Under the pieces are notes generated by a model that saw nothing but the letters and a program-made list of their open reading frames with translations, was not told the DNA's origin and ran no database searches. The position numbers and the translations under genes were made by a program. Positions 1,672-64,000 of a DNA stretch of 64,000 bases are shown in pieces. The stretch covers positions 13,630-77,629 of the forward strand of contig JBDGRE010000013.1 of assembly GCA_042218325.1 (NCBI GenBank), in the 5' to 3' direction. How positions within the stretch are numbered: the first letter of the stretch is position 1; the number at the start of each line of letters is the position of its first letter. This DNA is from Candidatus Nanohaloarchaea archaeon (GTDB lineage: Archaea > Nanohalarchaeota > Nanosalinia > Nanosalinales > Nanosalinaceae).

Positions 1672-1674
1672 CCT

Positions 1675-2280: not shown

Positions 2281-2331
2281 TCTTTCAGAACTGCCGTGCC
2301 GCTCTTTTAAGCGGCTAAAAAATATATTTTC

Positions 2332-3807: not shown

Positions 3808-3863
3808 ACTGTTTTCGTGGTCGCGGAGAATAGTTAAATAACTGGAGCCTCCTCTCACCGTTC

Positions 3864-5137: not shown

Positions 5138-5178
5138 CCTATCAACACTTCCCCCAGGTTAGTTTTAAGTTTTTCATC

Positions 5179-6632: not shown

Positions 6633-6908
6633 TTAAACTACCTTGACAGGTATCTTCCTGCGTCCTTCTTCCGTGCTCTCCATCTCTTCGATGAGCTTGA
6701 TGTCGAGCTCCAGCTGCTTGCGGCTGCCTGACTCGAAGAACTCCATCTCGAGCTGGTTGTCCTTGTTGGGCTCGATTTCCACCTCTTCACGGCCCTTGAA
6801 GCTGAGGCCGACTTCGCCCTCTCGAAGTTTATCGGCGAAGTTTTCCAGGAAGTTGGCGAGCTCATCATTGGAGAACTCGAAATCGAGTTCAAGTTCCTCT
6901 GTTGACAT
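6633..6908 (-). CDS. Amphi-Trp-domain-like small protein
   Basis: ELANFLENFADKLREGEV...LELDIKL pattern. Confidence 0.55.
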   Translation of the reverse strand: MSTEELELDFEFSNDELANFLENFADKLREGEVGLSFKGREEVEIEPNKDNQLEMEFFESGSRKQLELDIKLIEEMESTEEGRRKIPVKVV

Positions 6909-6944
6909 ATTATCTTTCTCCGGCGGTCACTGTTTTATTTTTTG

Positions 6945-7214
6945 TTACTCCTCTTCGGTTTCTCCGTTTTTCTCGAGCTTCCGGGCGAGGAAGTGGTCCT
7001 TCTCCTCGAGTTCACGTATGGATTCGACGGCGAACAGGTAACCGGTCCCTATCATCAGCAGGCCGAGGGTCGCCGGCGCCATGTCGACTATGCCGACAAG
7101 CGGCAGCATGTTGGCTATCACGAGAAGCGAGCCGAGCGTGAAAAGCGTGAAAGAGGCCGCGACTTCCTGGTTTGTGCTCAGTTTTTTAAGTCCGAACCGG
7201 TCTGTTTCCGTCAT
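6945..7214 (-). CDS. Small two-TM membrane protein
   Basis: Two hydrophobic segments; start overlaps the oapC stop. Confidence 0.7.
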   Translation of the reverse strand: MTETDRFGLKKLSTNQEVAASFTLFTLGSLLVIANMLPLVGIVDMAPATLGLLMIGTGYLFAVESIRELEEKDHFLARKLEKNGETEEE

Positions 7215-7594
7215 TCTAGCTCCTCCGTTTCCAGCTTCGCGTCTTCAGGGTTGAAGGCCGACGGAAGCTGTATGTAGTAGTTGCCCTCCTCCCGCCTTAT
7301 AACTAATGGTATCTCCTTGAGCAGACGGGAAACGTTTATCTGGTAGACGCCTTCCTCCTGTATGCTTATGGAGTCCAGGTCGAACTCGAACTTGATGTTC
7401 TCTCTTTCCTCGACGCCCTCGCGGGCCATCTCCTGTATCTCCTCGGTGACCTCCTCCCGTTCTTCCTCGGACATCTCCCGGGCCCCGGCCTCCTGCTCGT
7501 ACATGAAAAGCGAGGAACCGCACTCGCAGCCGTCGATAAGCTCGTCGCTCCCGTCGTCGTACATCTTGCCGCAGTTCATACATCTATGGGGCAT
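7211..7594 (-). CDS. oapC: Zn-ribbon origin-associated protein (DUF2072)
   Basis: MPHRCMNCG...GCECGS; synteny after GTPase and DUF2073. Confidence 0.85.
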   Translation of the reverse strand: MPHRCMNCGKMYDDGSDELIDGCECGSSLFMYEQEAGAREMSEEEREEVTEEIQEMAREGVEERENIKFEFDLDSISIQEEGVYQINVSRLLKEIPLVIRREEGNYYIQLPSAFNPEDAKLETEELE

Positions 7595-7596
7595 TC

Positions 7597-7735
7597 AAAG
7601 ACCACCTCCGCGGTCTTTTGCAAGAAGCAAATTTCTGATTTGCGTCATCAGGCTGCACCTCGTGCTGTCTGATTAAGGAAATCTTGTATTCGAAGATTCG
7701 CCTGAATCTTCTGCAAGAAAATTCCTTGAATTTTC
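7597..7735. repeat. Cluster of palindromic hairpins between oapB and oapC
   Basis: AAAGACC/GGTCTTT, GCAAAT/ATTTGC, GAAGATTC/GAATCTTC, GAAAATTC/GAATTTTC. Confidence 0.8.
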
Positions 7736-9907: not shown

Positions 9908-10128
9908 GGTGACATTTAAAACAGAAACGGATTTTTATGGCTTTCGGATGACAACTTGTATTTTGGTCCCGAAGAGATAGTATGTTCATGGACCGGCCCT
10001 CAACCAGAGCTAATGCTCAACACGCCCTCTTCAGAGGCTCTTCAAGCTTTGTAGCCTTTATCAGGGTTAGTAGTATTTATAAGGCTAACCTTTTGTCTCG
10101 TCTGGAATTGAGGTGAAAATCCTACTTG

Positions 10129-10725
10129 ATGGAAATTCTTTTACTCATTTATCTGCTATTCCTGTGTATAGGTAGGGAAAGACGAAACGAACCTGAAGTA
10201 GAAGATATCAACCTTGAAGAGATACCCAGGTTCGGAATTCCTATAATCGGGATCTTTCTGGTTTATGCAGCTGTATCGGTCGGATTGAATGATTTGATGT
10301 TAAATCTGGTAATTGGTGGTGCTGGAGTTCTTCTGATAGTTATATTCGGTGTTCTATTCGGTAAAAAGTACCAGGAAGAAGGTTTACAGGAAGCTATAGA
10401 TTACGCTGTTACAGCACCTATAGAAGAGAAAGAAACGGAAAGTAAGTCTCAACCACAAGGTCAAACAACGGAGAAAACTCCCCCGGCACCTGAAAGTTTG
10501 AAAAATGAACTCTACTTTGAAAGAGCGGATAAGCAGTGTGAATGGTGCGGCAAGGACATAGATTCGCCCGATGTTCACCACATTAAACCGCGAGAAGAAG
10601 GCGGACCTAACAAACCTTCTAATTTAATCGTTCTATGTCCGAACTGTCACAGAAAAGCTGATAGCGGAGTTATCAGCCGTTCAAAACTAAAATACCAGGT
10701 AAGGAAAAATAGAGGCGAGGAATAG
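10129..10725 (+). CDS. Membrane-anchored HNH endonuclease
   Basis: N-terminal TM segments; CEWC...HHIKP...N...NLIVLCPNCH. Confidence 0.85.
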   Translation: MEILLLIYLLFLCIGRERRNEPEVEDINLEEIPRFGIPIIGIFLVYAAVSVGLNDLMLNLVIGGAGVLLIVIFGVLFGKKYQEEGLQEAIDYAVTAPIEEKETESKSQPQGQTTEKTPPAPESLKNELYFERADKQCEWCGKDIDSPDVHHIKPREEGGPNKPSNLIVLCPNCHRKADSGVISRSKLKYQVRKNRGEE

Positions 10726-10730
10726 ATACT

Positions 10731-10973
10731 ATGGGAGTTGTCAAACGTGATGGGAAATGGCGTCTCGAGAAGAAAAAGAAAGGTGTCTACCTAGTTACCG
10801 AGAGAGGTCAGCAAAAAGCTAAAATCATAACAGGAGACTATGAACCAGACGGACCTATGAATGATAAAAGAGATGACATGATGTCAAACGTAATAGAGGT
10901 CAAGGATTTTAACGAGGCCAAGAAAGAATTCCGTAGTTTCGTAGAAGGTGGTTCATCTCCAGGATTCTTCTGA
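10731..10973 (+). CDS. Hypothetical protein
   Basis: ORF track; GAGG RBS. Confidence 0.6.
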   Translation: MGVVKRDGKWRLEKKKKGVYLVTERGQQKAKIITGDYEPDGPMNDKRDDMMSNVIEVKDFNEAKKEFRSFVEGGSSPGFF

Positions 10974-10977
10974 TAAA

Positions 10978-11169
10978 ATGAGTAAAGATCCAGTTGAGAC
11001 TGTTATTGAAGCAATTTCTGCCATCTTGATACTTGTAGTTGGACTAAAGATATTGTCGGGATTATTAGAGCAGGCTTCTATCTCTTCAGGTCTAAAATTG
11101 CTGATTCTAGGAGCACTCATTGTAGCAATTATTTCTGTTATCGCCGAGGCGATAGGTGAGGTGTCATAA
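10978..11169 (+). CDS. Small two-TM membrane protein
   Basis: Hydrophobic helices; operon spacing. Confidence 0.6.
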   Translation: MSKDPVETVIEAISAILILVVGLKILSGLLEQASISSGLKLLILGALIVAIISVIAEAIGEVS

Positions 11170-11363
11170 TGGTTAGAGATATTTCTACCAAGACGCTTGC
11201 AGTCAGTCTTTTAGTGGCTGTAGTGGGAGGTCTCGTGGTTTCTATTGTAAGTGAGGTCGAATTAATTTTGAGAGCTGTTATTTTGGATTTGATTATTACT
11301 ATTGCCTTGGCGGTTTACATCTTGTCAGAACCTTGGAACGATGATGAAGAATCGGAGACATAA
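11169..11363 (+). CDS. Small two-TM membrane protein
   Basis: GAGGTG RBS; TAATG overlap. Confidence 0.6.
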   Translation: MVRDISTKTLAVSLLVAVVGGLVVSIVSEVELILRAVILDLIITIALAVYILSEPWNDDEESET

Positions 11364-11412
11364 TATCAGCTTTCAAAATTATTCCTTATGGGAATAATTT
11401 TGGTTCCGGGTT

Positions 11413-11841
11413 TCAGGATTTATCCAGTTCTTTCTCCACTTTCTCCTCCAGCCGGTCTATGATTTCTTCTATTGTTTCTTCGTTCCTGTCGAGATAGTCT
11501 TGGTCTAGGAATTCTCGCCTGTAGTCGATGTCGTTTCTTAAACGCCGGAGCTGGTCCATCAGTTCGAGTTCGGACTGTGAGAAGTCATGGAACTCTTCCA
11601 TGAAGCTTATCAGGCATTCTTGCGAGTAGGATTTGTAGCCTTTTAGGTTGACGAGTGCGGTTACGAGCTTTTTGATGACCTCCCAGTATGATTCGACTAT
11701 GAGCGAGATGTTTTCCTCGTTGCGTTCCCGTCGATTGTTGTCCTCCAGTCTTATTCCTGCCATCTTAAGAAGTGACTCAGCTTCTTCGGGGTTAGGAGAT
11801 CTTTCGTGGACTTTCTCTTATAGGCATTCTTCCCAGTTCAT
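11413..11841 (-). pseudogene. HEPN-like toxin with an early in-frame TAA (11818-11820)
   Basis: MNWEECL*EKVH...; RRLRNDIDY motif; ATGA overlap with the upstream MNT. Confidence 0.7.
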
Positions 11842-12365
11842 CTTTTCACCTTCAGGAAGCCTTTCAAGGTTATTCCGTTCGCGGCACTGTTCGCGAATTC
11901 TGTGTTCGCGGCAAGTTCGTCCTCGGTCATGAACTGCAGGTTAATTTCTCTGTTGAAAGCTCCTTCGTATTCCGTGGTGTCGAACTCTTTCTCTCCTGCT
12001 ACAATCAGGATGTCGATATCGCTTTCCTCTGTGTCTTCTCCGTTGGCTGCGGAGCCAAATAGCACTATACTGTTGGGATGGAATTTTTTCTCAATTTCTT
12101 CTACCAGGCCGGTTTCGTGGAGTTTTCTGACCTTTTCCAGTTTCTTGTATAATTTGAACCTCTCGCTCTTACTGGCCTTGTAGCCGGGATAAGTTCCCTC
12201 TTCAACTTTCTCAAGGAAATCTTCCTCGGCCAGTTCGTTTACGTAATCTCTTACGGTGGGGAGAGATATTTCTGTTTCTCTGGATATTTCTCTCAACTGA
12301 TGCTTGGTGGTAGGCTCCTTGAAGAAGGGCTGGAGAACCCTGTGTTTTGTGAAATCATCAAACAT
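11838..12365 (-). CDS. wHTH + minimal nucleotidyltransferase (MNT antitoxin)
   Basis: LREISRET HTH; LFGSAANG...SDIDI. Confidence 0.88.
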   Translation of the reverse strand: MFDDFTKHRVLQPFFKEPTTKHQLREISRETEISLPTVRDYVNELAEEDFLEKVEEGTYPGYKASKSERFKLYKKLEKVRKLHETGLVEEIEKKFHPNSIVLFGSAANGEDTEESDIDILIVAGEKEFDTTEYEGAFNREINLQFMTEDELAANTEFANSAANGITLKGFLKVKR

Positions 12366-12437
12366 GTTAGAAAAATATAACACATGTTATAAAAATCTAT
12401 CGGCTGTTAGTTTTTGCTAACACTATGTGTTCGTTTG

Positions 12438-12593
12438 TCAGCTCTCTACTCTTTCCTTGAACTCTTCGGCGTCGATATCGCTCCAGGAACCGGCGGCTTC
12501 ATTAAAACGCTTCTTATCTCTAGATATCCTTCTCTTCACAGCTTCTAATTCTCTCTCAATATTCGTTATCTTAGGGATTACGTCCGAAGCCAT
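12438..12593 (-). CDS. Small orphan antitoxin-like protein (51 aa; not in ORF track)
   Basis: MASDVIPK...AAGSWSDIDAEEFKERVES; AGSW motif resembles archaeal VapB-type antitoxins. Confidence 0.5.
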   Translation of the reverse strand: MASDVIPKITNIERELEAVKRRISRDKKRFNEAAGSWSDIDAEEFKERVES

Positions 12594-12740
12594 AGTTCAG
12601 ATTTGCTGACACAAAGACTTATAGCTATGGGTAACGCAACGGGACTGGTTCGTTAAGGGGTCGGGTTCCAGCTGCTAACAGGCGGTCTTTTGGCCGGGAG
12701 CTGCCGGAGAACGGATAGTGTGTTGAACATGTAGTGGGAG

Positions 12741-12950
12741 TGGACCGGCCCGGATTTGAACCGGGGATCTCCACGTTCCTGACGAACTTCTGAACTCGAA
12801 GACCGTAAAATCTTCTGTGACCAGCAACCTGAAGGTTGCGGGAGTTCGATCATCAAAAGCGGCGTTCGAGCAGAGCTCTCAACCGCTTTTGTGCGTTAGT
12901 TGGTGATTCGGTATCAGCGTGGCGCTCTAACCGAGCTAAGCTACCGGTCC
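12741..12950 (-). tRNA. tRNA-Ile(GAU) with 135-nt intron at 37/38 (intron 12777-12911)
   Basis: GGACCGG/CCGGTCC-A, CCACG-CT-GAT-A|intron|A-CGTGG; BHB central helix CTGA/TCAG. Confidence 0.93.
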
Positions 12951-13037
12951 CTCTAATATCCCTGAACTCAGGAGCTATTTTAATAAATCGCCCTGTTTCC
13001 AGGCAGGACTTTTATTCCGGTAATTAAAAGTAACGGT

Positions 13038-13517
13038 GTGGCGCTCGACAGCTACCGGGATGAGGTCGAGGAGATAGGCTCTTCGCTTGAGTCGCACCTG
13101 TCCCGCAGCCAGGCCTACCGCATGAAGACCGCGCTCGACAGTGTGATGCCGGTCGTCCTGCTCTTGGTAGGGTTCGTACTCGTGTTCGAGTTCTTCCTCT
13201 CTATCACGCCCGCGATGGCCCGGTGGATAACCTGGGCTAACTGGGCGCTCATACTTTACTTCGCCACCCGGCTCGCGGTCGCCTATCGTCTTTCGACGAA
13301 CCACGACCGGTTCATACAGCAACACTGGCTTGACATACTGCTTGTCGTACCTGTGTTCTCCGTTATGCAGGAGGCCAGGGTCGCGAAGCTGGTGCCGGCG
13401 CTCGACGACCTGCCGGTCTTCAGGCGGGGCGTACTGTACGCTTTCCAGGGAGGTACGGCCGCCGAGAACGCCGCGAAACTGACTCGTATAACACGGATAA
13501 TCAAGAAGAGCGTGTGA
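13038..13517 (+). CDS. Ion-channel voltage-sensor-like membrane protein without pore domain
   Basis: TM helices, FIQQHWLDILLVVP (S3-like), Arg/Lys-periodic ARVAKL and KLTRITRIIK. Confidence 0.55.
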   Translation: MALDSYRDEVEEIGSSLESHLSRSQAYRMKTALDSVMPVVLLLVGFVLVFEFFLSITPAMARWITWANWALILYFATRLAVAYRLSTNHDRFIQQHWLDILLVVPVFSVMQEARVAKLVPALDDLPVFRRGVLYAFQGGTAAENAAKLTRITRIIKKSV

Positions 13518-13596
13518 TTTTGGTGGCTCGACAGGGTTTGAGGTCGAGAATTCAGGATTTTCTCGGACAAATACCGTCTCAACCATTCCGAAGGAA

Positions 13597-13728
13597 TGGG
13601 CCCGACGGGATTTGAACCCGCGACAACCGGCTGTCCTTGCAAAGATCGGGATCTTCTAGGTCGACCGCCTCTTGCGAGGAACCCGACGCCTAAAAGGCCG
13701 GCGCTCTACCAGACTGAGCTACGGGCCC
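13597..13728 (-). tRNA. tRNA-Lys(UUU) with 58-nt intron at 37/38 (intron 13633-13690)
   Basis: GGGCCCG/CGGGCCC-A, CCGGC-CT-TTT-A|intron|A-GCCGG; BHB CTTT/AAGG. Confidence 0.93.
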
Positions 13729-47705: not shown

Positions 47706-47857
47706 AAAGGTATTTTGTGCCCGATGCTGTTTTATTAACTGTGGCGGCCATGTTGCTACCGCCGCGTCAACCCGTAAACCGAAACTTATATAAGAGTGGG
47801 GGCTACATGGATGGGTGTCGGGGGGGGAAACGACTCCTTATGCCGGAAAAGGATACT

Positions 47858-48964
47858 ATGTCAGAGCAGGAACACGTACCGCGTCGCGAATTCGACTCTT
47901 ACCAGGTTCCCGAAGAATGGGAGGCTGAAGAAGAGGAAAAACCAGAAGAAGATCCACAGGATTCTCCGGAAGCCGGGGCCGAAGAGATAGACGAGGAAGC
48001 CGTCGCTGAAGGAGAGGGATACACTGTAGTACAGGAAGAGGCCGAAGAGGGCGACATGGTCCTCACCTGTCCCGAGTGTGGGGCACAGCGTTTCGAGGAG
48101 GACTCTGCTGAAGGACAGCTCGTCTGCGTCGAGTGTGGACTCATCGTCGACGAGAACCGTATCGACGAATCCGCGGAATGGCGCGCCTTCAACCAGGAGG
48201 AGCGCGAGAAGAAGGCCCGTGCCGGACAGCCGCTAACTTATACCAAGCACGACATGGGCGTATCCACGGAGATAGGAAAGGGTTCGGGAGAGCTCTACAA
48301 GGTCTCGGGGAACAAGCGCGCACAGTACTACCGCCTGAGGAAGTGGCACAAGCGCCTTACCAAGTCGAAGGACCGTAACCTCGGGTTCGCCCTCTCGGAA
48401 CTGAACTCGATGGTCTCCAACCTGAACCTTCCTGAATCTGTGCACGAGGAGGTCGCCCGGCTATACGAGAAGGCGGTCGACAAGGGCCTCGTCCGCGGCC
48501 GTTCCATGGAGTCCATCATCTCCGCGCTGCTCTACATCGTCGCGCGGAAGCAGGGAACGCCGAGGACCCTGGACGAGATCTCCGAGGCATCGGGCATCGA
48601 GAAACGCGAGATCGGCCGCGCATACCGTTACGTTGCGAGGGAACTCGGTCTCCGCATCCTGCCCGCCAAGCCGCAGGACTACGTACCGCGGTTCGCTGGA
48701 AAGCTCCAGCTATCCGGAGAAGTCCAGGCCCGGGCGCGCCAGATACTGAAGGAGGCGCGCGAGAAGGACCTGCTCTCCGGTAAAGGCCCGACAGGCCTCG
48801 CCGCAGCCGCGCTCTACATCGCCGCGGTGCTCGAAGGCGAAAAAAGGACGCAGCGCGAAGTCGCTGACGTCGTCGGAGTGACGGAAGTCACCATCCGGAA
48901 CCGCTACAAGGAGCTAGCGGAGAAGCTCGGCCTCGAGGACGAACTCGAGGAGAAGAGTAACTGA
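47858..48964 (+). CDS. tfb: Transcription initiation factor TFB
   Basis: CPECG...CVECG, EWRAF, two cyclin repeats, VTIRNRY. Confidence 0.97.
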   Translation: MSEQEHVPRREFDSYQVPEEWEAEEEEKPEEDPQDSPEAGAEEIDEEAVAEGEGYTVVQEEAEEGDMVLTCPECGAQRFEEDSAEGQLVCVECGLIVDENRIDESAEWRAFNQEEREKKARAGQPLTYTKHDMGVSTEIGKGSGELYKVSGNKRAQYYRLRKWHKRLTKSKDRNLGFALSELNSMVSNLNLPESVHEEVARLYEKAVDKGLVRGRSMESIISALLYIVARKQGTPRTLDEISEASGIEKREIGRAYRYVARELGLRILPAKPQDYVPRFAGKLQLSGEVQARARQILKEAREKDLLSGKGPTGLAAAALYIAAVLEGEKRTQREVADVVGVTEVTIRNRYKELAEKLGLEDELEEKSN

Positions 48965-49103
48965 TTCTGGCCGCTGGCCCGGCTGCATTTCCTCTTATTT
49001 CTCTTATTCTTGTTCCTTCGCTTAAATCGACATTCCTACATCCCGGGTCAGATCCATAGAAAATCCGCAGGGATTTTCTGGTGATGCAGAAACTCTATCG
49101 AGT

Positions 49104-49214
49104 TTCGAATCCGGGTCCTGCCAATTGCATTTCTCCACATTTGATAGGAATGCGGGAACTGCCGAGAAACTTTTCAAGTGGTTGGATTATATTACTGTGC
49201 TATTCTTGCAAATT
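49104..49214 (+). repeat. 111-bp repeat starting with a tRNA T-arm/acceptor-like segment (TTCGAATCCGGGTCCTGCCA)
   Basis: 98/111 ungapped identity to 63890-64000 by manual alignment. Confidence 0.9.
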
Positions 49215-49251
49215 CGATTCGGGTAAAAAGAAGAAAGAGTAAATGTTGATG

Positions 49252-49923
49252 TTAGCTAAAGAAATTGTTCAAAAGGTTTGAGACGATTCCAGGGTTTCTT
49301 TCCTGAGCTTGTTCATTTCCCGGTGTTCCGTTAACCGCTTCTTCAGCATTTTGAGATGACCCTTCTCGTTCAACTTCAGCTTCAGTCTCTGTTTCATTGT
49401 CGTCTGTTCTCTGTTCTACTTCTGCCTCTGTTTCCTGTTCACCAGACTCTCGTTCAACTTCAGCTTCAGTCTCTGTTTCGGCATTCCTTCTTTCGAACTC
49501 TACTTCGCTCTCTGAATCAGCTTCTGAATCTTCTGATTCAAGCTCGGCAACTTCTCTTCTCAGGTCCATCACCATTCCTCGAAGCTCATCGATTCTGTCC
49601 TTGGCTTGTTCAAGGTTCTGAACTTCTATTTGTTCAAGCTCTTCTACTTCTGATTCGTTCTCCTCTTTGCCTTCTGTTTCTGCCGCTTCTGATTCGTTGA
49701 TAGAGAGTACTGTGCTGTTGTCGGTTTTTTCCATCTCTAAATCGTCTTCTGTCTCATTCTCTTCCTGTTCTATGACTTCTTCGGTTTCATTTTCTTCATA
49801 CTCTGCTTCTTCTGTCTCTTCCTCGTCATCCGAGTCGTCTTCTGGAACATCTGAATCATCTTCCTCCGTCTCATTCAAATGTTCATCAGCCATTACAGGA
49901 GCCAATGCCAACATCAAGACCAT
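49252..49923 (-). CDS. Secreted, extremely acidic protein with internal ETEAEVE repeats
   Basis: Signal-peptide-like N-terminus; 32-bp identical repeat at 49364-49395 and 49448-49479. Confidence 0.7.
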   Translation of the reverse strand: MVLMLALAPVMADEHLNETEEDDSDVPEDDSDDEEETEEAEYEENETEEVIEQEENETEDDLEMEKTDNSTVLSINESEAAETEGKEENESEVEELEQIEVQNLEQAKDRIDELRGMVMDLRREVAELESEDSEADSESEVEFERRNAETETEAEVERESGEQETEAEVEQRTDDNETETEAEVEREGSSQNAEEAVNGTPGNEQAQERNPGIVSNLLNNFFS

Positions 49924-49998
49924 TGCAAGTGCTAAAAACTTGCCTTTGCTTGATACCTAAAATTGGAATTAATTCTCTTGTTATAAATAATAACCGAT

Positions 49999-50016
49999 AA
50001 TTCGGGCCCTGCCAAT
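49999..50016 (+). repeat. Short copy of the tRNA-3'-like repeat
   Basis: AATTCGGGCCCTGCCAAT vs AATCCGGGTCCTGCCAAT (16/18). Confidence 0.7.
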
Positions 50017-50052
50017 ATTTATATTTTTTTTAAAGGAAAATGTTAATGATCA

Positions 50053-50518
50053 ATGAAAATATCCAATAATATTTTTTTTGGCATTTGCTCTCTTCTTAGG
50101 CATTTTTCTTGTTATTCAATATCAGGTTTCTAGTCATGATATTAAGATTGTAACAGGTTCGGGAAAAAACACCTCTTCGGTAAATCCGGAACATACCTCT
50201 TCGATAAGTCCTGAAAACCCCCAATCTTCTGTTCTTGAAGTAAATGTGTTGAAGGCATCAGATTACTCGGGTTTTTCAAAAGGGGATGATATCCGTTTAA
50301 AAATTAAGTATTATACTAATCCTCCTCCTTCCCTAAAGTTTCTGTCATCTCTTAATAATTTAACTGAAGGAGATAGAATCCGTGTTTCGAGTCGTAGTGG
50401 AAATTGGACCGGGGAATTTATTTCCTTTGACAAAAGGAATATTGATTCTTTTGACCAAAAGATCAGTCTAGGAAACTCGCCCGACTGGAATCAATCAATA
50501 AGTTTTTTTTTTCAGTAG
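50053..50518 (+). pseudogene. Membrane-anchored hypothetical protein, probably frameshifted near the start
   Basis: ATG at 50053 is out of frame with the 50078 ORF across A/T homopolymers. Confidence 0.45.
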
Positions 50519-50653
50519 ACTAATCTGTATCTCATCAATTAAGAAAAGGTGTTCAGCCGAAGAGAACTCGCAAGTTCATTTTTGGCCGACAATCTGAATT
50601 TATGGGGGGCGGAGACTGTGGTTTTTATTATTTTTTATTTCGGTTGTTGAGTT

Positions 50654-51165
50654 ATTTTTCCGTTTTCGCATTTCTTCACAGGCTATTTGATTGGCTTTCT
50701 CTTGACAACTTTAGGATTAGTAGATTTATCTAGTACAACCGTGGCAGTATTTGGAATTCTATCTCTGCTGCCAGATGCTGACGCCATATGGCACAGCAAA
50801 ATCAAAGAACATCATAAAACGCTATTTCATGCACCGCTATTCTGGATAATTATTTCCACTTTGACTTTATTTGAGAGTACAGAGATGGCAATTATAATTT
50901 CGTCCATCACCTTGACCCATATTTTTACAGACTATATAACCGGCAGAACGGTCGGTATCGCGTTTCTATACCCGATTAAAGATAATGAAGTAAGTCTATA
51001 TCCATTAAATGATGAAACTGCCAGTCTTAATCCTGTGAGTCCACAAAAAGAACTCCTGAACAACATCTATCATTTTACATTGAAAACAAAAAATTGCTGA
51101 TATTTGAAGGGCTTCTCACAATCTCAGGAGCAATCAGTCTAATTATACTAATCCTCCAGCTATGA
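50654..51165 (+). pseudogene. Membrane-bound metal-dependent hydrolase, start lost and 3' frameshift
   Basis: (I)FPFSH...PDAD...HHKTLFHAP...HIFTD; C-terminal TM is in another frame. Confidence 0.65.
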
Positions 51166-51174
51166 CTATTCATG

Positions 51175-51231
51175 GATTCCGGAAACTTCCAATTGCATAT
51201 CTCCACATTTGAAATGGATACGAAAACTCCC
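51175..51231 (+). repeat. Degenerate copy of the tRNA-3'-like repeat
   Basis: CCAATTGCATATCTCCACATTTGA core nearly identical to 49121-49144. Confidence 0.85.
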
Positions 51232-51234
51232 AAA

Positions 51235-51683
51235 TTAGTGTTTGTACTCTTTGAGGTTTACATCTTTATCAGCTGGGCCATAAAGTTCAGGCAGAAGTTC
51301 TCTTAACTTAGTTTCTTCAGTCTCTTCTGTCCCTGCCATGAGAATTGTAATATCATTTTCTTCATTAGGTTGAGCAAATTCGTTCATCAACTGTAGACAC
51401 ATTCCACAAGGTTTGAATCCTGTAGAAGAATCTCTCATCACACATATACCCTTAAATTGATAGTTTCCCTCTGTTACAGCATTTCCAATGGCGTTTCGTT
51501 CTGAACAAGTTACCATCCCAGATATCATGCTCTTGACATTAACCCCTGTATATATTTCCCCCTTCTCGGTTAATACTGCTGTGGATGTCTAAGTACCTCC
51601 TGAAGGTGTAAAGGCATTACCTAAAACTTTTTCGGCTTCGTCAATTAATCTGGACTTTTCATTTTCGATAGGGTCGTTGACAT
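51235..51683 (-). pseudogene. Cytidine deaminase with in-frame TAG and 5' frameshift
   Basis: GEIYTGVNV...CSERNAI...PCGMC...LLP. Confidence 0.8.
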
Positions 51684-51716
51684 ATACTGATAATTAATCC
51701 CTATTATCAATAATTT

Positions 51717-51777
51717 AATCCCGGAAGCTGTCAACTGCATATCTTCTTGATTTCGGTTCAGACATACGTCCTGCCAA
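51717..51777 (+). repeat. Two adjacent degenerate copies of the tRNA-3'-like repeat
   Basis: AATCCCGGAAGCTGTCAACTGCATATCT and CGGTTCAGACATACGTCCTGCCAA. Confidence 0.6.
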
Positions 51778-51844
51778 GTAGTTTGCAATTTTGCCTTCAG
51801 CTCATCATGAAAATAGTTTAATAGCCTCTAACTCGAAATCGGAT

Positions 51845-52102
51845 TTATGCAATTTCTTCCAGATAACTCAAGCCCCGGAATTCTTCAGCTACCTTGTTTT
51901 TAACATGGAAGTTGCCGGTTTCATACACCTCTTCAATAACTTTGCTTGAAGGTATTAGATAGTGTTCTCTTGGTTCTCCTACTACGAGCAGGAAAATGTA
52001 TGCGATGGAAAGATTCTCTCCAGCTCTTCCTCTTCTACTTGCGTGAAAACTCGGATGTTCTAACTTGTCCTCGATTGCCTGAAGCCCTTTACAATTCCCC
52101 AA
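51845..52102 (-). pseudogene. Gene fragment of unknown function
   Basis: Short AT-rich ORF with a protein-like C-terminus only. Confidence 0.3.
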
Positions 52103-52140
52103 TTTTTCCGGTTGAGTTTCCAGTGCTGTAAAAACTTTGT

Positions 52141-52436
52141 CTACTCCAGCCCGTACTCGTCCCAGTCCGAGTCTCTTATCGAGAAGGATATGTCGTAGTG
52201 CTCGGTCCGGGCACTTTCCAGGGCCGCGATCTTAGAGAACACCCGATAGACGAAGTTGTGGTGTTCCTCGTACTGGCCGTCCAGATATACGTCGATTGCG
52301 TTGACCTCGCCGCGCCAATCTATTCGTGCATCCAGGTGTCGACTGCGTCAGGCATGTCCACGTCGAACTCCTCGCCCGCGTAACTTTCCATCAAATCGTT
52401 CGCCTGACTGGCGTTTAGTCATCCCTTTCTTGCCAT
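52141..52436 (-). pseudogene. Decayed acidic hypothetical gene
   Basis: Core-like codons interrupted by TGA, TAG and a frameshift. Confidence 0.4.
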
Positions 52437-52572
52437 AAAGGGAGCGCTGCCGGCCAGGAGAGGTTTTTTGTCTTGCCGGGGTTCGACTTCTTCCAGTTTG
52501 TCGTCTTCATCAGATTCTGCTGAGATAGTTATTACTGTTCAACAGTTCGCATTCAAGAAGTAAAATGGTTCC

Positions 52573-53670
52573 CTACAGCTCCCGGATGATACCCTTGATA
52601 TCTTTTATGGGCGCGTCCGTCCTGAAACCGGTCGGCGAGAAATGCGTCCGTGAAACAGGATAGCCCTTCTCATCGATGGCCTCTATAACGCGGTCGCGTT
52701 TGGGTACCTGTATCTCGAGCAGCGAGCACAGCTCGTGGAGGTCGTAGAACGGCGTCAGTATCTCCGCTTCCTTGTGGACCAGCTCCAGGATTTCGCGTGC
52801 TTCTTCCCAGTCCTCCGGCATCTCGTCCATGATCTCTCCAGTGAACCTTCGATCCGCTATCTTCCCGGTCCAGAGCGGGCCGGCGATCTTTGTCTCGCCT
52901 CCGCATAGAGGGCACTCAGCTTTTCTTTCAAGGGCACGCCATCGGCACTCCGGGCAGAACGACAGGTGGCCGATGTTCTCCGTGTTTTTGTTTGCGCGGC
53001 GCTTCGACTCCGTCACTCTTCCTGTTGCGCGGGAGTAGTGCTGCTCGTGCCAGCACAGTTTTGGGTCGAAGTCCTTGTCGAACCGGGCGAAGTTCCGGAA
53101 AGCCTCCTTGATGTATATCCTCAGCCCGGTCTCGTGCATGAAGCTGTTCTTCAGCGGCGTCGAACCGTACCTCCGTTCACATACCTTCGGGTAGCTTCCA
53201 GCCGGTGCCGCGTTGTCGGTTGCGGTAAAACCTGCGAGGCTCTGGTAGTTTGCTGCTCGTGCCGCAGAGTCGAGGTAGTTCGTGAACGAGCCGAAAGGGT
53301 CGACGTCTATTATATTGAAGTAGTTGCCGTGCTCGGAGAGCAGGACGTTCGCGTCCTTCTCCGTGACCTCTGCCTTTATGCCGTTTTCCCCCAGGCCTCT
53401 CCTGATGCTTTCGACCGCCTCCGGGCTGGTGTCGTTGATGACGACGTTACCGAAATCCGTGTACCGGAAGCCGCGGATGCCTGAAGCTGCGAGCGCGTCG
53501 CAAATCCGCGGCCCGTCGATCTCGGTCTCGTCGAGGAACACTTTCGCCGCGGTGACGGAAAGATCACGGTTCGCCAACATGTCCTTGTTGTAGAAGACCT
53601 CCGACTCCTTGTCGGGCTCCTCTTCTCTCGCGGCGAACAGCGAGAAACCGCGCTCCTCTATCTTATCCAT
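52573..53670 (-). CDS. trm1: tRNA (guanine-26-N2)-dimethyltransferase
   Basis: VFYN...NRDLS...ASGIRG...DVDPFGS...GPLW. Confidence 0.95.
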   Translation of the reverse strand: MDKIEERGFSLFAAREEEPDKESEVFYNKDMLANRDLSVTAAKVFLDETEIDGPRICDALAASGIRGFRYTDFGNVVINDTSPEAVESIRRGLGENGIKAEVTEKDANVLLSEHGNYFNIIDVDPFGSFTNYLDSAARAANYQSLAGFTATDNAAPAGSYPKVCERRYGSTPLKNSFMHETGLRIYIKEAFRNFARFDKDFDPKLCWHEQHYSRATGRVTESKRRANKNTENIGHLSFCPECRWRALERKAECPLCGGETKIAGPLWTGKIADRRFTGEIMDEMPEDWEEAREILELVHKEAEILTPFYDLHELCSLLEIQVPKRDRVIEAIDEKGYPVSRTHFSPTGFRTDAPIKDIKGIIREL

Positions 53671-53773
53671 GGATTGATATGGCCGGGAAAATGTTTTTAA
53701 AGAGGCCTCTGTTTCCGGCGCTGACAGGGTTTATAAACATGTGCTTAACTACTCATTCTCGAGGGATTCTGAG

Positions 53774-54094
53774 ATGGCAGAAGTTGTGAGCGAGGTCAAG
53801 AAGGCGGAAGAAGACGCGGATTCTATCATCCGGGACGCCAGGGAAGAAGCAGAGGACATCATCGAAGAAGCAGAGCAGGAGGCCCGCGAGATAGTGACCG
53901 AGGCCGAGAAGGACGCGCAGCAGCTCAAGTCCGACCGTATCGAGAAAGTCCGTGACAGGATGGACGAGAAACGTGACCGGATAATAGAAGAGGGAGAGCA
54001 GGAGGCGGACAGGATAGCTGACAGGGCATCGGAAAACATGGAAGACGCGGTAGATGTACTTGTAGAACATTTCAGGCAGGAATTCCTTGAGTGA
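53774..54094 (+). CDS. ahaH: A-type ATP synthase subunit H
   Basis: Helical EAE repeats; first gene of the operon. Confidence 0.85.
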   Translation: MAEVVSEVKKAEEDADSIIRDAREEAEDIIEEAEQEAREIVTEAEKDAQQLKSDRIEKVRDRMDEKRDRIIEEGEQEADRIADRASENMEDAVDVLVEHFRQEFLE

Positions 54095-54101
54095 TGACAT
54101 C

Positions 54102-55916
54102 ATGGTCAGGCCAGCAGAGATGACGAAGATATCGGTAACAGGACCCAAGTCCGAGCTCCAGGCAGTGATAGAGGAGCTTCACGGCCTTTCCCTGATGGAC
54201 ATAGAGGAATACGACGGGGAGCTGGAGACCGGCGAACCGTTCGAAGAGGCCGAGGAACTCTCGGAAACGCTGGTCGACGTCCGCTCACTGATCTCAAAGC
54301 TCCCGGGGAGCGAAGAAAAAGCTGAGACGTCTCTCGATGAGATACAGCGGAATATAGACCGGATCCGGGAACAGGTCGAGGAACTTGAGGACCGCGGCCA
54401 GGAGGTCGAGAACGAACTCTCGAGTCTCGAGGACCAGGAAGGTTTCTTCCGGAAGATAGAAGGCTCAGGCGTCAGGGCCGAAGATCTTGAGGGCTCGGAG
54501 ACGCTTGATGTTTACGTGGGTCGTTTCGACCCGGCGGAGCTGGAATCCGGGACCGGCGCGAGCTATGAGGTTTTCGAGGGACGGCAGGCGAATATCGTTT
54601 TCTACCGCGAGGCCGACTCGGAGGACATCGAAACCGCCCTGAGGGAGATAGGCGCCGAGCAGGTCAACCCTGTCGATACAGGTTTCGAGGGGGAACCGGT
54701 CGAGGTGCTCGAAAAGATAGAGGAGAGAAAAGAAGAACTTGGGCAAGAAAAACAGCAGATAGAGGAAGAGCTCCAGGATATAGCCGATGAGTGGCGTTCC
54801 GGGCTCAAAAACGCCGAGGAGTTCCTCACGGAAAAAGTGGAGAAATCCGAGGCACCCATAAAGTTCGCCACCACGAAGAGGACTTTCATCGCGGAGGGAT
54901 GGGTTCCTGCAGAGGAACTTGGACCTCTGCGCAGCCGTCTCGAGGCGGAGACGAGCGGAAAGATACACATACAGGAAGAGGAAGGCGAGAACCCGCCTGT
55001 CAAGCACGACAACCCGGGCCCGGTCAAGCCGTTCGAGTCGCTGACCGATCTCGTCTCCACACCAACATATAACGAACTCGACCCATCGTTCATGATATTC
55101 CTGACCTTCCCTGTCATGTTCGGATTCATGATAGGCGACGCCGGCTACGGTATTACGACACTGGCTGTGTTTTACGCAGGCTACAGGATGTTCCCGGAAG
55201 CGAAACAGATATTCAAGTCGCTGATGTACGCCTCCGTCGCGACCATCGTATTCGGCCTGGCGTTCGGGGACGCGTTCGGATACATGCTGTTCGGATCGCA
55301 CTCGGACCTGGCGCACGTGACAGGTATACACCTGTTCGAGCAGATACCTGTACTGTTCCACCGGGCCGATCACCTTGGACAGGTCTTCAACATCGCGGCC
55401 CTGTTCGGACTGGTACACGTCAACGCAGGATACCTGCTCGGCGGCTACAACGAGTACGTCAACCACGGCCTGAAAGAGGCGTTCCTCGAGAAGGGCAGCT
55501 GGCTGCTGCTCGAAGTCGGCGCGGCGCTCTGGTACTTCGTCGGCATGACAGCAGGTCTGCCGGTGATACTCATCTCCATAGTGACTCTGTACCTCGGAGA
55601 GGGAGTTGAAGGCGTCGTCGAGATACCATCGCTGGTATCGAACGTTCTCTCCTACCTGCGGATATTCGGTGTTTCGGTCGCGGCAGTCGCACTTGCGGGA
55701 GTTGTGAATTCGATGGCGCAGCCACTGTTCGAGATGCACACCCTGCTCGGGACGGTAGCGGGCATCGGTGTTTTAATGATAGGCCATACTTTCAACACGT
55801 TCATCAAAATCATGGAAGGCTTCCTCCAGGGCATCAGGCTCCACTACGTGGAACTTTTCACGAAGTTCTTCGAGGGAGGAGGCCGCAAGTACGCTCCCTT
55901 CGGGGCGCGTAAATGA
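54102..55916 (+). CDS. ahaI: A-type ATP synthase subunit I (a)
   Basis: ELDP...FGFMIGDAGYG...LSYLRI...RLHYVE. Confidence 0.96.
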   Translation: MVRPAEMTKISVTGPKSELQAVIEELHGLSLMDIEEYDGELETGEPFEEAEELSETLVDVRSLISKLPGSEEKAETSLDEIQRNIDRIREQVEELEDRGQEVENELSSLEDQEGFFRKIEGSGVRAEDLEGSETLDVYVGRFDPAELESGTGASYEVFEGRQANIVFYREADSEDIETALREIGAEQVNPVDTGFEGEPVEVLEKIEERKEELGQEKQQIEEELQDIADEWRSGLKNAEEFLTEKVEKSEAPIKFATTKRTFIAEGWVPAEELGPLRSRLEAETSGKIHIQEEEGENPPVKHDNPGPVKPFESLTDLVSTPTYNELDPSFMIFLTFPVMFGFMIGDAGYGITTLAVFYAGYRMFPEAKQIFKSLMYASVATIVFGLAFGDAFGYMLFGSHSDLAHVTGIHLFEQIPVLFHRADHLGQVFNIAALFGLVHVNAGYLLGGYNEYVNHGLKEAFLEKGSWLLLEVGAALWYFVGMTAGLPVILISIVTLYLGEGVEGVVEIPSLVSNVLSYLRIFGVSVAAVALAGVVNSMAQPLFEMHTLLGTVAGIGVLMIGHTFNTFIKIMEGFLQGIRLHYVELFTKFFEGGGRKYAPFGARK

Positions 55917-62228: not shown

Positions 62229-62305
62229 CCCCTTTCAGAGAGTGTTTACTCCCCCAACATTTTTACCTATTTCCCGAATAAAGATTCTTGATAGGTTCAC
62301 CAACT

Positions 62306-62464
62306 ATGGCAGATGAAGGTAAAAGACGCGTACAATCAAAAGGCGAGATAACCTTGCCCAAAGAATTCCGAGAGGAAAATGACATCTCCCCTGGAGATTA
62401 TATCACTTGGAAACGCCACAGCCGCGACAGCTCAAAACTGATAATCGAAGTAAAGAAAGATTAA
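62306..62464 (+). CDS. AbrB/MazE/SpoVT-family DNA-binding protein (52 aa; not in ORF track)
   Basis: RVQSKGEITLPKEFREENDISPGDYITW. Confidence 0.85.
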   Translation: MADEGKRRVQSKGEITLPKEFREENDISPGDYITWKRHSRDSSKLIIEVKKD

Positions 62465-62722
62465 AACAGAACTATATTTGACAATTTTTTCTTTCACCTT
62501 TTTCTTCTGTTCTTTATCCAAGTCGTATTTCTCAATAATTTTATCCAATTCTTCTTCATCTATCCGGCCTTCAGACCTATTCTCTTCAATTTCTTTCTCT
62601 ATATCTTCAGCTACATCTTCATCCAGATTATTTAGTGCAACTTCTAATGCAGGATGCTGATCGATTGAATCATTTTTCAAATCCTCAGTTTTCTCTAAAT
62701 TATAACTCATAGCAGCAAACAT
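62432..62722 (-). CDS. Hypothetical protein, possibly a fragment
   Basis: Acidic ORF; 3' end overlaps the AbrB gene. Confidence 0.45.
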   Translation of the reverse strand: MFAAMSYNLEKTEDLKNDSIDQHPALEVALNNLDEDVAEDIEKEIEENRSEGRIDEEELDKIIEKYDLDKEQKKKVKEKIVKYSSVLIFLYFDYQF

Positions 62723-62974
62723 ACAGTGGCTTCCTGGTTCTGCGCCGTAATCATGACGGGTAAAGGGAGCGGTTAGATAAACTGTTTTGAAAAGCTGTAT
62801 TCCGGTTGCGGCAGGCGTTTATCCGTCTCTCCGAGATAGGTGGTAGAACTAAGGAGCAGGAAGAAGAACTTGAAGAAGTTAAGAGAAGGATCTGGGAACT
62901 CAAAAAGTCGATAGCTGGAGAAGAAGACCCTCATCCTTTCACCTCGAACCCTGAAGAAATAGAAGGTGAGTTGT

Positions 62975-63385
62975 ATGGCTGAAGAAGATTTGAATTGGGA
63001 AAAAGCTGAATCACGCAGTGATTTGTTTAGCCGGTATTGGTATCATCCTAAAGCCGGAGATATATTGGAAGATATAGATGGAAACAGAAATATCACGTTC
63101 CTCAGCGATAGAAAGTATATCTCGATTTATGCCACTTTTGCAGCGATAAGGAAAGACATCAATGACCTGGTTCAAAGAGTCAACGAACTGGAGAAAGAAA
63201 GTGATACCGGAGGAAGTTTGGAGGAACGTGTCATGGCTTTGGAGGAAAAGCTGCCTAAAACCCGGACAGAGAAAATCCGTTACGACCTGGTAAACACCGA
63301 TAAGAAACAGAAAGAGATAGCAGAACGGTACGGAGTATCTCCAGAGTACGTTTCCAAGGTTAAACGTGAGGCCGGAATCCAATGA
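62975..63385 (+). CDS. Coiled-coil + C-terminal HTH protein
   Basis: AGGTGA RBS; QKEIAERYGVSPEYVSKVK. Confidence 0.75.
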   Translation: MAEEDLNWEKAESRSDLFSRYWYHPKAGDILEDIDGNRNITFLSDRKYISIYATFAAIRKDINDLVQRVNELEKESDTGGSLEERVMALEEKLPKTRTEKIRYDLVNTDKKQKEIAERYGVSPEYVSKVKREAGIQ

Positions 63386-63870
63386 ATCGAGAACATGACC
63401 GGAACTACAGCATCATGGTTAAGGTCCGTAATGAAGACCCATACCTGCCTCCAAGTAGGCATCTCGATACAATGGAGCTGCCGAAAGGAGAAAGGAACCC
63501 GGTAGAGGATGAAAAGGAATTGGTTTCACTGCTCTACTTGGTGTATAAACGGGAGATGAAGGTAAGTTTGCAGGTGAGTAGGGGCGGGTTCAAAACCTGT
63601 TATCGTGGATTGATAGACCCTGTTTTCAGGAAGACGCGGAGAGGGGGAAAGAGACTGCGTTTTGTCAGGTTCAAATCGTTTGAAGAGTCACTGGAGTATT
63701 ATCTCGGCATCGAACCTGTCCACCCCACAACAGAGAAGGATAATCGCTGGATTAAGATAGAAGATCCGGAGAGTTTGGTTCCCTCAAAGTTCTTGGAAGA
63801 GAAAAGGGAAGAGTTCCAAGACTACCAGGAAGGTTCTCGGCATCGAGTAAATGAAAAAGAAAGATTTTGA
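63382..63870 (+). CDS. Hypothetical protein
   Basis: ATGA overlap with the upstream HTH gene. Confidence 0.6.
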   Translation: MNREHDRNYSIMVKVRNEDPYLPPSRHLDTMELPKGERNPVEDEKELVSLLYLVYKREMKVSLQVSRGGFKTCYRGLIDPVFRKTRRGGKRLRFVRFKSFEESLEYYLGIEPVHPTTEKDNRWIKIEDPESLVPSKFLEEKREEFQDYQEGSRHRVNEKERF

Positions 63871-63884
63871 GGTATTATCAGGAT

Positions 63885-64000
63885 TCCGGTTCAAATCCGC
63901 GACCTGCCAATTGCATATCTCCAGATTTCATAGGGATGCGGGAAATGCCGAGAAACTTTTCAAGTGGTTGAATTATATTACCGCGTTATTTTTGCAAATT
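63885..64000 (+). repeat. tRNA-3'-like repeat, long copy (may continue beyond window)
   Basis: CCGGTTCAAATCCGCGACCTGCCA followed by about 90 bp matching 49124-49214. Confidence 0.9.

Follow-up and report, generated by a model that had tools for sequence, protein, structure and literature searches.

We analysed a stretch of 64,000 nucleotides (nt) from a Candidatus Nanohaloarchaea archaeon, hereafter the window (G000:C5:13630-77629). The genome, G000, comprises 1.07 Mb in 35 contigs and has a GC content of about 57%. The region 49042-51776 of the window, in the gap between the TFB and Trm1 genes, is best read as an array that arose through site-specific recombination at a tRNA-Pro(UGG)-derived site. 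With a probability of about 0.6, it is a tandem array of three small integrative units, A (0.89 kb), B (1.18 kb) and C (about 0.58 kb), which hold no integrase gene and would depend on a recombinase acting in trans. The composition of this DNA is foreign to its surroundings: GC content drops to 31-45% at about 48950-52100, compared with 51-65% on both sides (300-nt windows). A first-pass annotation, made from the letters alone, had described five same-orientation repeats here between unrelated genes, and had proposed an integron-like gene-capture platform in which cassettes are inserted by a recombinase in trans and then decay.

A tRNA-Pro-derived repeat at the ends and joints of the array

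The annotation had predicted a parent tRNA for the repeat, and such a tRNA exists. Using ARAGORN with introns allowed, we found 43 tRNA genes in G000, three of which are tRNA-Pro genes. The parent, tRNA-Pro(TGG), lies on another contig (G000:C2:58851-58925); its 3' end is GGTTCAAATCCGGGCCCTGCCA, followed by ATTGCAAATCTCCACAATTCTAAGGGATGACGAAACTGCC, and tRNA-Pro(CGG) has the same 3' end. The tRNA 3' end and the letters following it therefore show the repeat to be the last 22-27 nt of tRNA-Pro (T-arm plus acceptor 3' end), called O, with a 40-nt arm after it, called P'. An arm that precedes O is called P. With about 60-110 nt, the repeat is longer than had been described. The array is laid out as follows, in window coordinates.

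49042-49058 (+): left edge of the array, a degenerate T-arm 5' half (CCCGGGTCAGATCC) read from the sequence, with no tRNA body upstream
49059-49106 (+): module X, 47 nt, in the T-loop between duplicated TTCRAATCC, with perfect hairpins at 49059-49078 and 49089-49106
49102-49123 (+): O copy 1 (GTTTCGAATCCGGGTCCTGCCA), comprising T-loop, T-stem 3' strand and acceptor 3' strand of tRNA-Pro
49124-49163 (+): arm P' copy 1, the box ATTGCATTTCTCC and then ACATTTGATAGGAATGCGGGAACTGCC, conserved directly after tRNA-Pro(TGG) at eight loci
49164-49992 (-): unit A, with the gene of an acidic secreted protein at 49252-49923 (no Pfam family)
49993-50014 (+): site 2, a decayed O remnant (AATTCGGGCCCTGCCA) that has lost P'
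50015-51169 (+): unit B, 36% GC, with the two genes of the next two lines
50078-50518 (+): 146-amino-acid (aa) protein with a hydrophobic N-terminus (no Pfam family)
50687-51100 (+): YdjM-like membrane protein (Pfam YdjM, E = 1.3e-8, 35 bits against a cut-off of 29)
51170-51231 (+): site 3, an O-variant (TTCCGGAAACTTCCA) with a full P' arm
51235-51693 (-): unit C, a broken cytidine deaminase gene (Pfam dCMP_cyt_deam_1, E = 8.9e-10)
51717-51776 (+): right end of the array, an attR-like composite of arm P and O with no P' after it
51717-51754 (+): arm P of the right end, the box ACTGCATATCTTC and then TTGATTTC
51755-51776 (+): O copy of the right end (GGTTCAGACATACGTCCTGCCA)
63888-64000 (+): further O-P' copy, which ends a second AT-rich island and is cut by the contig end

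All five copies described earlier are present in one orientation, but their strength is unequal: those at 49104 and 51175 are strong, that at 51717 is moderate, and those at 49999 and 51753 are weak. Strength was judged using a profile built from six strong copies, and its E values are genome-wide unless given for the TFB-Trm1 gap alone. Copy 49104 (TTCGAATCCGGGTCCTGCCA and then ATTGCATTTCTCC) has no mismatch to the pattern (E = 2.6e-22). Copy 51175 (E = 1.4e-9) is a 57-nt direct repeat of 49107-49163 with 77% identity, and copy 51717, listed by the profile as 51714 (E = 0.23, 0.004 in the gap alone), is 81% identical to 51176-51202 over 27 nt. At 49999 only AATTCGGGCCCTGCCA remains (E = 0.56, 0.01 in the gap alone). 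Indirect support for this copy comes from the sequencing runs X1-X4, for which assembled contigs served as read evidence (X4 is from the same study): in runs X2 and X3 a variant contig has a good O-P' site at exactly that place, joined to 49995 through the letters ...TCGGGGGTCCTG (joint 49995>51189). The 20-nt pattern has three matches in the window at no more than three mismatches and none in any of 100 shuffles. For the box CCAATTGCATWTCTCC, four matches at the same tolerance compare with 0.65 expected, a number that was reached in 1 of 100 shuffles. A sixth strong copy at 63890 (E = 3.6e-22) adds to the five; it is 88% identical to 49104-49214 over 111 nt, including a second start of unit A.

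By itself, copy 51753 does not reach significance (E about 1 in the gap alone). Together with 51717 it makes up one composite (box, TTGATTTC, then GGTTCA...CCTGCCA) as found at other loci, so that the two are halves of one P-O composite marking the right end of the array. Elsewhere, units end in this composite at C2:59732-59787, L064:815, L037:9551, L059:6137, L059:7494 and C31:34916 (C denotes contigs, L other loci and G genomes). Site 3 looks like a P/P' fusion without the O core, as a deletion between the two boxes of P-O-P' would give; its O-variant is found also at C26:1631-1690 and C2:59722-59756. O copy 1 carries the GGGTCC variant of tRNA-Pro(TGG) in other genera, while the resident version is GGGCCC. 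The O-P' repeats show no significant fold (z from -0.97 to +1.30; sites 1, 3, 4/5 and 63890 as DNA, sites 1 and 3 on both strands) and no Rfam family at gathering score. Two minus-strand open reading frames (ORFs) run over the sites (49022-49177 and 51075-51233), and their similarity is no more than the DNA repeat implies.

Within the first copy lies a two-hairpin module that the annotation had not noticed. The fold of 49040-49125 reaches -17.3 kcal/mol (z = -3.62), and only 1 of 200 shuffles was as stable. This module X has the same neighbours in C16, G001, G007 and G008, with one compensatory change in G001 (GAAACCC/GGGTTTC), and the piece GGTTCAAATCC precedes it also in C16, G007 and G008. 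A related module, Y (AAATTCTTCCAGAATTT...GAAAATCTTCGATTTTC), stands between duplicated CTGCCA, between O and P'. Both are about 47 nt long, each with two perfect 7-8-bp hairpins with loops of 3-4 nt, and are conserved across genera with at least the one compensatory change in G001. One or the other occurs at 49059-49106 of the window, G000:C16:56258-56431, L039 (G007) 7250-7700, L043 (G012) 6800-7100, L063 and L074. A binding site, a terminator or a miniature insert are possible roles.

The gene calls of the annotation, namely the acidic protein, the (YdjM-like) membrane protein, the cytidine deaminase and TFB upstream, were confirmed. The cytidine deaminase gene of unit C is a pseudogene with an in-frame TAG at 51589-51591 and both open pieces in one frame. 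Along the array the gene orientations are -, +, +, -. A search for defence functions with PADLOC gave no match among 8 proteins.

Site forms and units in the genome and the family

The repeat is a genome-wide family in G000. The 20-nt pattern was found 9 times (0 in the reversed control), the 15-nt box 11 times (1 in the control), and O at no more than four mismatches 16 times (0 in the control). At E < 0.01 the profile has 12 matches (C5 3, C2 2, C16 2, C31 1, C20 1, C26 3), six of which lie outside the training copies. That the repeats sit at breakpoints of gene content, as had been supposed, agrees with their placement in or at the edges of AT-rich foreign patches: on the high-GC contigs, 6 of 8 copies lie where local 1-kb GC content is below 47% (7.3% of positions), and the other two lie on an AT/GC boundary. 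The binomial P of 3.7e-6 for this placement is an overstatement because the 8 copies represent only 4 loci.

The scan of related genomes, which the annotation had proposed, places the repeat in one family. BLAST with the 79-nt repeat was positive for 12 of 31 genomes including G000: 11 of 18 genomes from the same family carry it, and none of 12 genomes from four other families of the order does. Public genomes scanned for the exact pattern yielded 19 loci. Ten of them, labelled Nanohaloarchaea, Nanohalobium or uncultured archaeon, were analysed, and all ten have profile matches and six have tRNA-Pro(TGG); the other nine (Butyrivibrio, Bifidobacterium and others) were set aside as chance matches.

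Three forms of the site occur. In the first, tRNA-Pro(TGG) runs into O and P' (eight loci: G000 C2, G005, G009, G010, L059, L061, L064 and L066). In the second, P and O are followed by another flank; this form was found at five loci by regular expression and at more by eye, including 51717-51776 of the window and C31:34916, and its P arm consists of a second CCAATTGCATATCTC-like box with TTGATTTC or GAATATC. The third form, P-O-P', lies within arrays, for example at L037:8128. As far as their sequences tell, the three forms fit the products expected of site-specific recombination between an attachment site attP (P-O-P') and an attB that holds O, the first corresponding to attL, the second to attR and the third to a tandem junction. 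In G007 and G012 the tRNA runs straight into TCGCTTTCAGCG..., which is homologous to the flank after P-O at C2:59787, and this locus would be the empty site. The G000 locus on C2 reads as tRNA-O-P', a RadC-like gene and P-O-native flank, with both junctions intact.

The units between the sites are small. Spacings were taken between successive profile matches, including weak ones (E <= 0.6 in the own genome, <= 0.05 elsewhere), and 41 were below 12 kb, 15 of them of 42-133 nt and 26 of at least 542 nt. Two distances from tRNA-Pro(CGG) to tRNA-Pro(TGG) (3118 and 3813) and one duplicate record were dropped, and 23 units remain, with lengths of 542-2208 nt and a median of 876. Among the 22 units examined, 16 have one ORF of at least 60 aa, five have two and one has four. 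GC content is 35-45% in all 22, also in hosts with 56-57% GC. In the single-gene units the gene is antisense to the site in 12 of 16 cases and sense in 4. The larger ORFs match HD, histone-deacetylase-family or alpha/beta-hydrolase domains in Pfam, or nothing. Two single-gene units are clean from O-P' to P-O, C2:58904-59787 (862 bp, RadC-like) and C31:33948-34916 (947 bp), and the window array has kept both site forms at its ends, as have C2, C31 and L064. The complete genome G011 holds an orphan array of four copies with no tRNA before it, and in both G011 and C31 there are orphan arrays whose ends are attL-like and attR-like.

Units are shared between genomes. Unit 3 of L059 and unit 1 of L073 are 76% identical over 714 nt; the alignment spans O to the following O and ends there, and their contexts differ. 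The start of unit 2 in G001 is 81% identical to unit 1 of L064 over 535 nt. In the window, 49118-49857 (O, P' and unit A) aligns over 784 nt (72.6% identity) with the unit that comes first after tRNA-Pro(TGG) in L063, a metagenome-assembled genome (MAG) of Nanohalobium sp. An approximately 87% identical variant of unit A was found on contigs of runs X1-X3, with a depth above that of this organism in X2 and X3. Units common to different genomes would be compatible with integrase-less elements moved by a helper.

We suggest the following mechanism. A free circular unit would carry a three-part attP made of arm P (about 35 nt, a CCAATTGCATATCTC-like box and then TTGATTTC), the core O (22-27 nt, with the same letters as the tRNA-Pro T-arm and acceptor 3' end) and arm P' (40 nt, the same box and then ACAWTTSWTAGGGATGCGGAAACTGCC). 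Recombination of attP with any O copy, in the tRNA gene or in a resident unit, would give O-P'...cargo...P-O, and repeated events would stack units with P-O-P' at the joints. The window would then keep the two ends, O-P' at the left (49102-49163) and P-O-flank at the right (51717-51776), and its inner joints would have decayed, site 2 by loss of P' and site 3 by loss of O through a deletion between the two boxes. The recombinase would be supplied in trans, most likely as the tyrosine integrase of a larger element, and the system may still be active today.

The TFB-Trm1 gap in relatives and populations

The array is flanked by conserved host genes, as follows.

47717-48964 (+): TFB gene, left flank, with Pfam TFIIB repeat (E = 2.7e-47) and TFIIB zinc ribbon
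51777-52572 (-): right flank up to the Trm1 stop, AT-rich to about 52150 and then GC-rich with frameshifted ORF pieces
52573-53670 (-): Trm1, tRNA (guanine-N2)-dimethyltransferase, right flank (Pfam TRM, E = 4.5e-89), syntenic in 8 of 8 relatives

The conserved core of TFB (48017-48964) is host DNA with 55-65% GC, and its aa identity is 90-98% across all eight relatives. The AT-rich part of the right flank extends 375 nt beyond the array end (GC profile and stop-to-stop ORFs); no Pfam family and no tblastn match among relatives was found in 51777-52572.

The gap is a hot spot of variable content. The order histone, PIN, permease, TFB, gap, Trm1, atpH, atpI is kept in all eight relatives fetched. 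The gap measures 3608 bp here and 4412, 4728, 2707, 673, 648, 620, 619 and 381 bp in the relatives, where it holds unrelated genes, in several cases without repeats. An invariant locus would have spoken against the annotation, and these eight syntenic relatives show the opposite. The congener G001 has a repeat copy in the middle of the gap (E about 2e-9) among other genes. Variability is found also behind tRNA-Pro(TGG), where G000 and G001 have 4.7 and 9.2 kb without similarity between syntenic flanks.

Population data point in the same direction. In a related population (run X4), a contig links the end of TFB at 48962 with that of Trm1 at 52573, and the array is absent. This contig differs from the window at 10 of 1039 letters in the TFB piece and at 52 of 486 in the Trm1 piece, and judging by the record length no more than about 458 other letters would separate the two ends. 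The right AT/GC junction is bridged by an independent X1 contig with one difference over 50072-54500. The left junction is bridged by no contig among the pieces listed, and depth is several-fold higher there, as for a repeat. Parts of the island without cover in X2-X4 carry no weight. The annotation had suggested a search for excised circles joined at the repeat, and none was seen in the assembled contigs of X1-X4, nor was any trusted single-unit or empty-site variant. Neither the joints linking sites 1 and 3 nor the back-joints 51203>49104 or 49125 were counted as deletions or circles, since their short sides lie within the repeat.

The statement that no intact tRNA and no recombinase adjoin the array holds at this locus. 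No tRNA or tRNA half was found at 49-52 kb by ARAGORN with introns or by Rfam. Most tRNA genes of G000 bear introns (48-143 nt, canonical position), and because of these long introns standard ARAGORN finds no tRNA in the window, where Rfam finds two. A split, permuted or intron-bearing tRNA was also rejected: the CGAGT before the T-loop of copy 1 does not pair with CCGGG, and ARAGORN and Rfam were empty.

Other AT-rich patches exist in the window. A second island at about 62229-64000 (43-44% GC) begins directly after the V-ATPase subunit D gene and contains three small ORFs, then the strong O-P' copy at its end and the start of a paralogue of unit A; the contig break at 64000 is probably due to the repeat. 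Two further patches, 1-4000 and 10001-13000 (41-46% GC), adjoin intron-bearing tRNA genes, namely tRNA-Ala at 3656-3807 (-) beside the former and tRNA-Ile and tRNA-Lys at about 12740-13728 (-) beside the latter. The patch 1-4000 carries a tyrosine integrase (PF00589 match at 2767-3345). Both patches look like ordinary tRNA-linked integrated elements.

Recombinase candidates, alternative explanations and known systems

We searched for a recombinase that could serve the sites. The edges and the interior of the island have no PF00589 match, and the nearest in the window is that at 2767-3345. In tblastn, the seven PF00589 integrases of G000 gave a best E of 4.3 against the window island and 1.0 against six island regions. 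Against 28 array loci, the same seven found only an integrase at L065, 3.6 kb from the site, and a 20-aa N-terminal fragment at L067. None of the 22 units examined, nor the window array, holds an integrase. A scan of metagenomes for the P-O junction gave 34 loci, nine with a profile match (three only at E = 0.022), and tblastn of all 34 found no integrase in any site-bearing locus; L091, L102 and L110, which were inspected closely, are all integrated copies. Serine recombinases were also rejected: G000 and G011 have one small resolvase-type match each, and G001, G005, G007 and G012 have none over cut-off, so their distribution does not track the arrays.

The integrase on C26 was considered as the cognate enzyme but could not be assigned to the sites. 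Its gene ends exactly at a site copy, yet integrases of this type adjoin tRNA-Gly(TCC) in L067 and G005. It scores 40.7 bits with the integron-integrase model (cut-off 265), and with the XerA model it and the sole tyrosine recombinase of G011 score 92 and 84 bits, respectively (cut-off 220). The C26 type carries a C-terminal zinc ribbon, and its intergenus homology stops at the stop codon. C26 itself (4356 bp, 42% GC) may be mis-binned and foreign to G000. On this contig the integrase is followed by three O-P' sites with two units of 1.4-1.6 kb. In L067 an integrase gene of this type is cut after codon 18 by a P-O junction, and its start is preceded by a T-arm-like hairpin, CCCGGGTTCATAAACCGGG. 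An N-terminal fragment of the type (50% identity, one in-frame TAG) lies at G000:C23:15316-15579 beside tRNA-Glu(TTC), with a second copy of the 3' half of this tRNA at C23:17567; this locus looks like a decayed element at another tRNA.

Several results weigh against an array of mobile, integrase-less units. A cognate recombinase was not found among the candidates searched. The C26 integrase is 97% identical in aa (90% in nt) to one in another genus (G006:C16:26050-27261), and the sole PF00589 and sole PF00239 matches of G011 both lie about 500 kb from its array. By the profile, three of the five window copies are weak. There is no tRNA gene between TFB and Trm1 here or in the eight relatives, and therefore the primary target is missing at this locus; either a pseudo-site would have been used or the array would have arrived as a block. 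The back-joints from site 3 to site 1 have only the repeat as support, and their source is probably other loci or organisms. The units shared by L059 and L073 could be old, vertically inherited last units that have not moved. The metagenome contig L110 has a 4-kb unit without integrase behind tRNA-Pro(TGG) (1368-5413) with two O copies and other arms, and unit sizes are therefore not strictly small. Its cargo comprises genes for a histone-deacetylase-family protein and an alpha/beta hydrolase, besides unknown ones. Neither the viral contigs nor the metagenome scan yielded a free attP form; the three viral-contig scans gave 0 matches, 11 chance matches and 0 matches.

On another reading the units are scars of full-size integrative elements, such as integrase-bearing proviruses or plasmids, which inserted serially at tRNA-Pro-type sites and were trimmed by deletion, the small units never having been mobile themselves. 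We consider this unlikely, although it has precedents. Tandem integration with later loss of the integrase is documented for archaeal elements in the sections covered of PMC8371274, and likewise for Prochlorococcus islands in those of bioRxiv 10.1101/2020.12.28.424599. The covered text of bioRxiv 10.1101/2025.02.15.638363 reports nanohaloarchaeal spindle viruses that bear integrases; a larger integrase-bearing element stands beside one L065 site copy; and the decay in the window array (weak sites 2 and 5, the cytidine deaminase pseudogene) would follow from trimming. However, none of the arrays yielded an integrase fragment, whereas tycheposon islands, as portrayed in the sections covered, hold fragmented integrases. 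All 23 unit lengths are at most 2.2 kb and none has the size of a full element, and both arms have survived in the two clean single-gene units, an outcome seldom expected of random deletion.

Still less probable, in our view, is that the island is a block brought in by a single event from a tRNA-Pro-linked array of a low-GC relative, through illegitimate or TFB-mediated homologous recombination, with the repeats as inactive passengers here. The collinearity of its left part (O, P', unit A) with the region behind tRNA-Pro(TGG) of the Nanohalobium MAG, the GGGTCC variant of other genera in the O copy, the absence of a tRNA target at the locus, the unrelated genes without repeats in the gap of several relatives, and a TFB gene similar enough across genera to anchor recombination would all agree with such a transfer. 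But the right end of the array is a proper P-O-flank composite (51717-51776), as a recombination product would have, in the congener G001 this gap contains another site copy next to other genes, and orphan arrays with both kinds of ends recur in G011 and C31. That the repeat is a regulatory or structural signal travelling with genes (terminator, promoter or small RNA), or that the weak copies are chance matches, we regard as very improbable. The conservation of P' directly after tRNA-Pro(TGG) in many genera, the structured look of modules X and Y (z = -3.62) and the gene 3' end that faces P' in 12 of 16 single-gene units would suit a signal. The O-P' repeats, however, have neither a significant fold nor an Rfam family, and the three site forms together with unit homology from site to site are a prediction of recombination and not of a signal. 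For the strong copies, chance is excluded.

A tandem array of small units moved in trans, which we prefer, has likenesses among known systems. Integrase-less attC clusters (CALINs) have reportedly been found in Archaea, and like integrons and CALINs the array has small, mostly single-gene cassettes with one site each, content that varies among relatives and a recombinase that may be lacking. Nevertheless, an integron or CALIN was rejected: IntI and attI are both missing, the sites are tRNA-derived direct repeats without the attC hairpin fold, and orientation is mixed. Unlike integron cassettes with their attC, each unit here would carry a three-part attP. The term integron-like is thus only an analogy, though the site forms and shared units do fit integration of small units. 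Cis-mobilizable elements (CIMEs) are integrase-less elements flanked by att sites and mobilized by a related autonomous element; they occur in bacteria, are associated with conjugative elements and span several kb. The array resembles them in having att sites at both ends, no recombination module and a tandem arrangement at one site, but it is archaeal with smaller units, and an autonomous partner was not found.

The array has features of a tRNA-targeted island. Direct repeats of the tRNA 3' part bound the insert (49102-49123 and 51755-51776, with remnants between), the composition is foreign and presence varies among relatives; an intact tRNA at the island end is missing here but present at the sister locus C2:58851-59787 and at the eight tRNA-O-P' loci, and no integrase gene lies inside. 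A split-integrase element of the Sulfolobus spindle-shaped virus (SSV) type was rejected since neither island edge has integrase similarity. One likeness is to the tycheposon islands of Prochlorococcus, whose description (bioRxiv 10.1101/2020.12.28.424599, in the part covered) has newcomers pushing older elements outward and degenerate remnants and partial tRNAs scattered in the island. There, as here, tRNA-targeted elements are stacked with partial tRNA copies between them, and tycheposon cargo is strain-specific. Tycheposons have, by the same partial account, their own integrases, with fragmented ones in the islands, whereas 0 of 22 units here have one; here there are mostly single genes below 1 kb, a three-part site, DPANN hosts, and arrays also away from tRNA genes. 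For archaeal elements, the parts covered of PMC8371274 describe tRNA 3'-end integration, tandem integration and later loss of the integrase, which leaves captured DNA between partial tRNA repeats; the cases described there are plasmids and proviruses of several to tens of kb, unlike the single-gene units of about 0.9 kb here. The report on integrase-bearing Nanohaloarchaeota viruses (bioRxiv 10.1101/2025.02.15.638363) has no att analysis in the text covered. In the literature searched, supplements aside (these may list att sites), we found no description of tRNA-Pro-linked cassette arrays in Nanohaloarchaeota, nor of single-gene units of about 0.9 kb that share conserved arms across a family.

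Accretion at a tRNA-derived att site is thus a known principle. New are the minimal, recombinase-free and mostly single-gene units, the conserved three-part site, its spread across one archaeal family and the orphan arrays. Should the units be no more than what larger elements left behind, the locus would be a decayed integration hot spot of the ordinary kind. We tentatively propose, at somewhat less than even odds, a wider picture: a family-wide pool of minimal recombinase-free mobile cassettes, each with one or two genes and a three-part attP of about 100 nt centred on the tRNA-Pro(UGG) 3' end, which would hop by means of a host or helper recombinase between the tRNA-Pro gene, resident O copies and orphan landing pads such as the TFB-Trm1 gap. 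If this is true, the pool would be the functional counterpart of integrons in DPANN archaea, and its recombination site of about 100 nt (O and arms) would be of use for genetic tools. Nanohaloarchaeota have host-dependent lifestyles and genomes of about 1 Mb, and little is known about their gene gain and loss. A shared pool of single-gene cassettes with one docking site, crossing between hosts of 40% and 57% GC, would explain the AT-rich hypervariable patches of these genomes.

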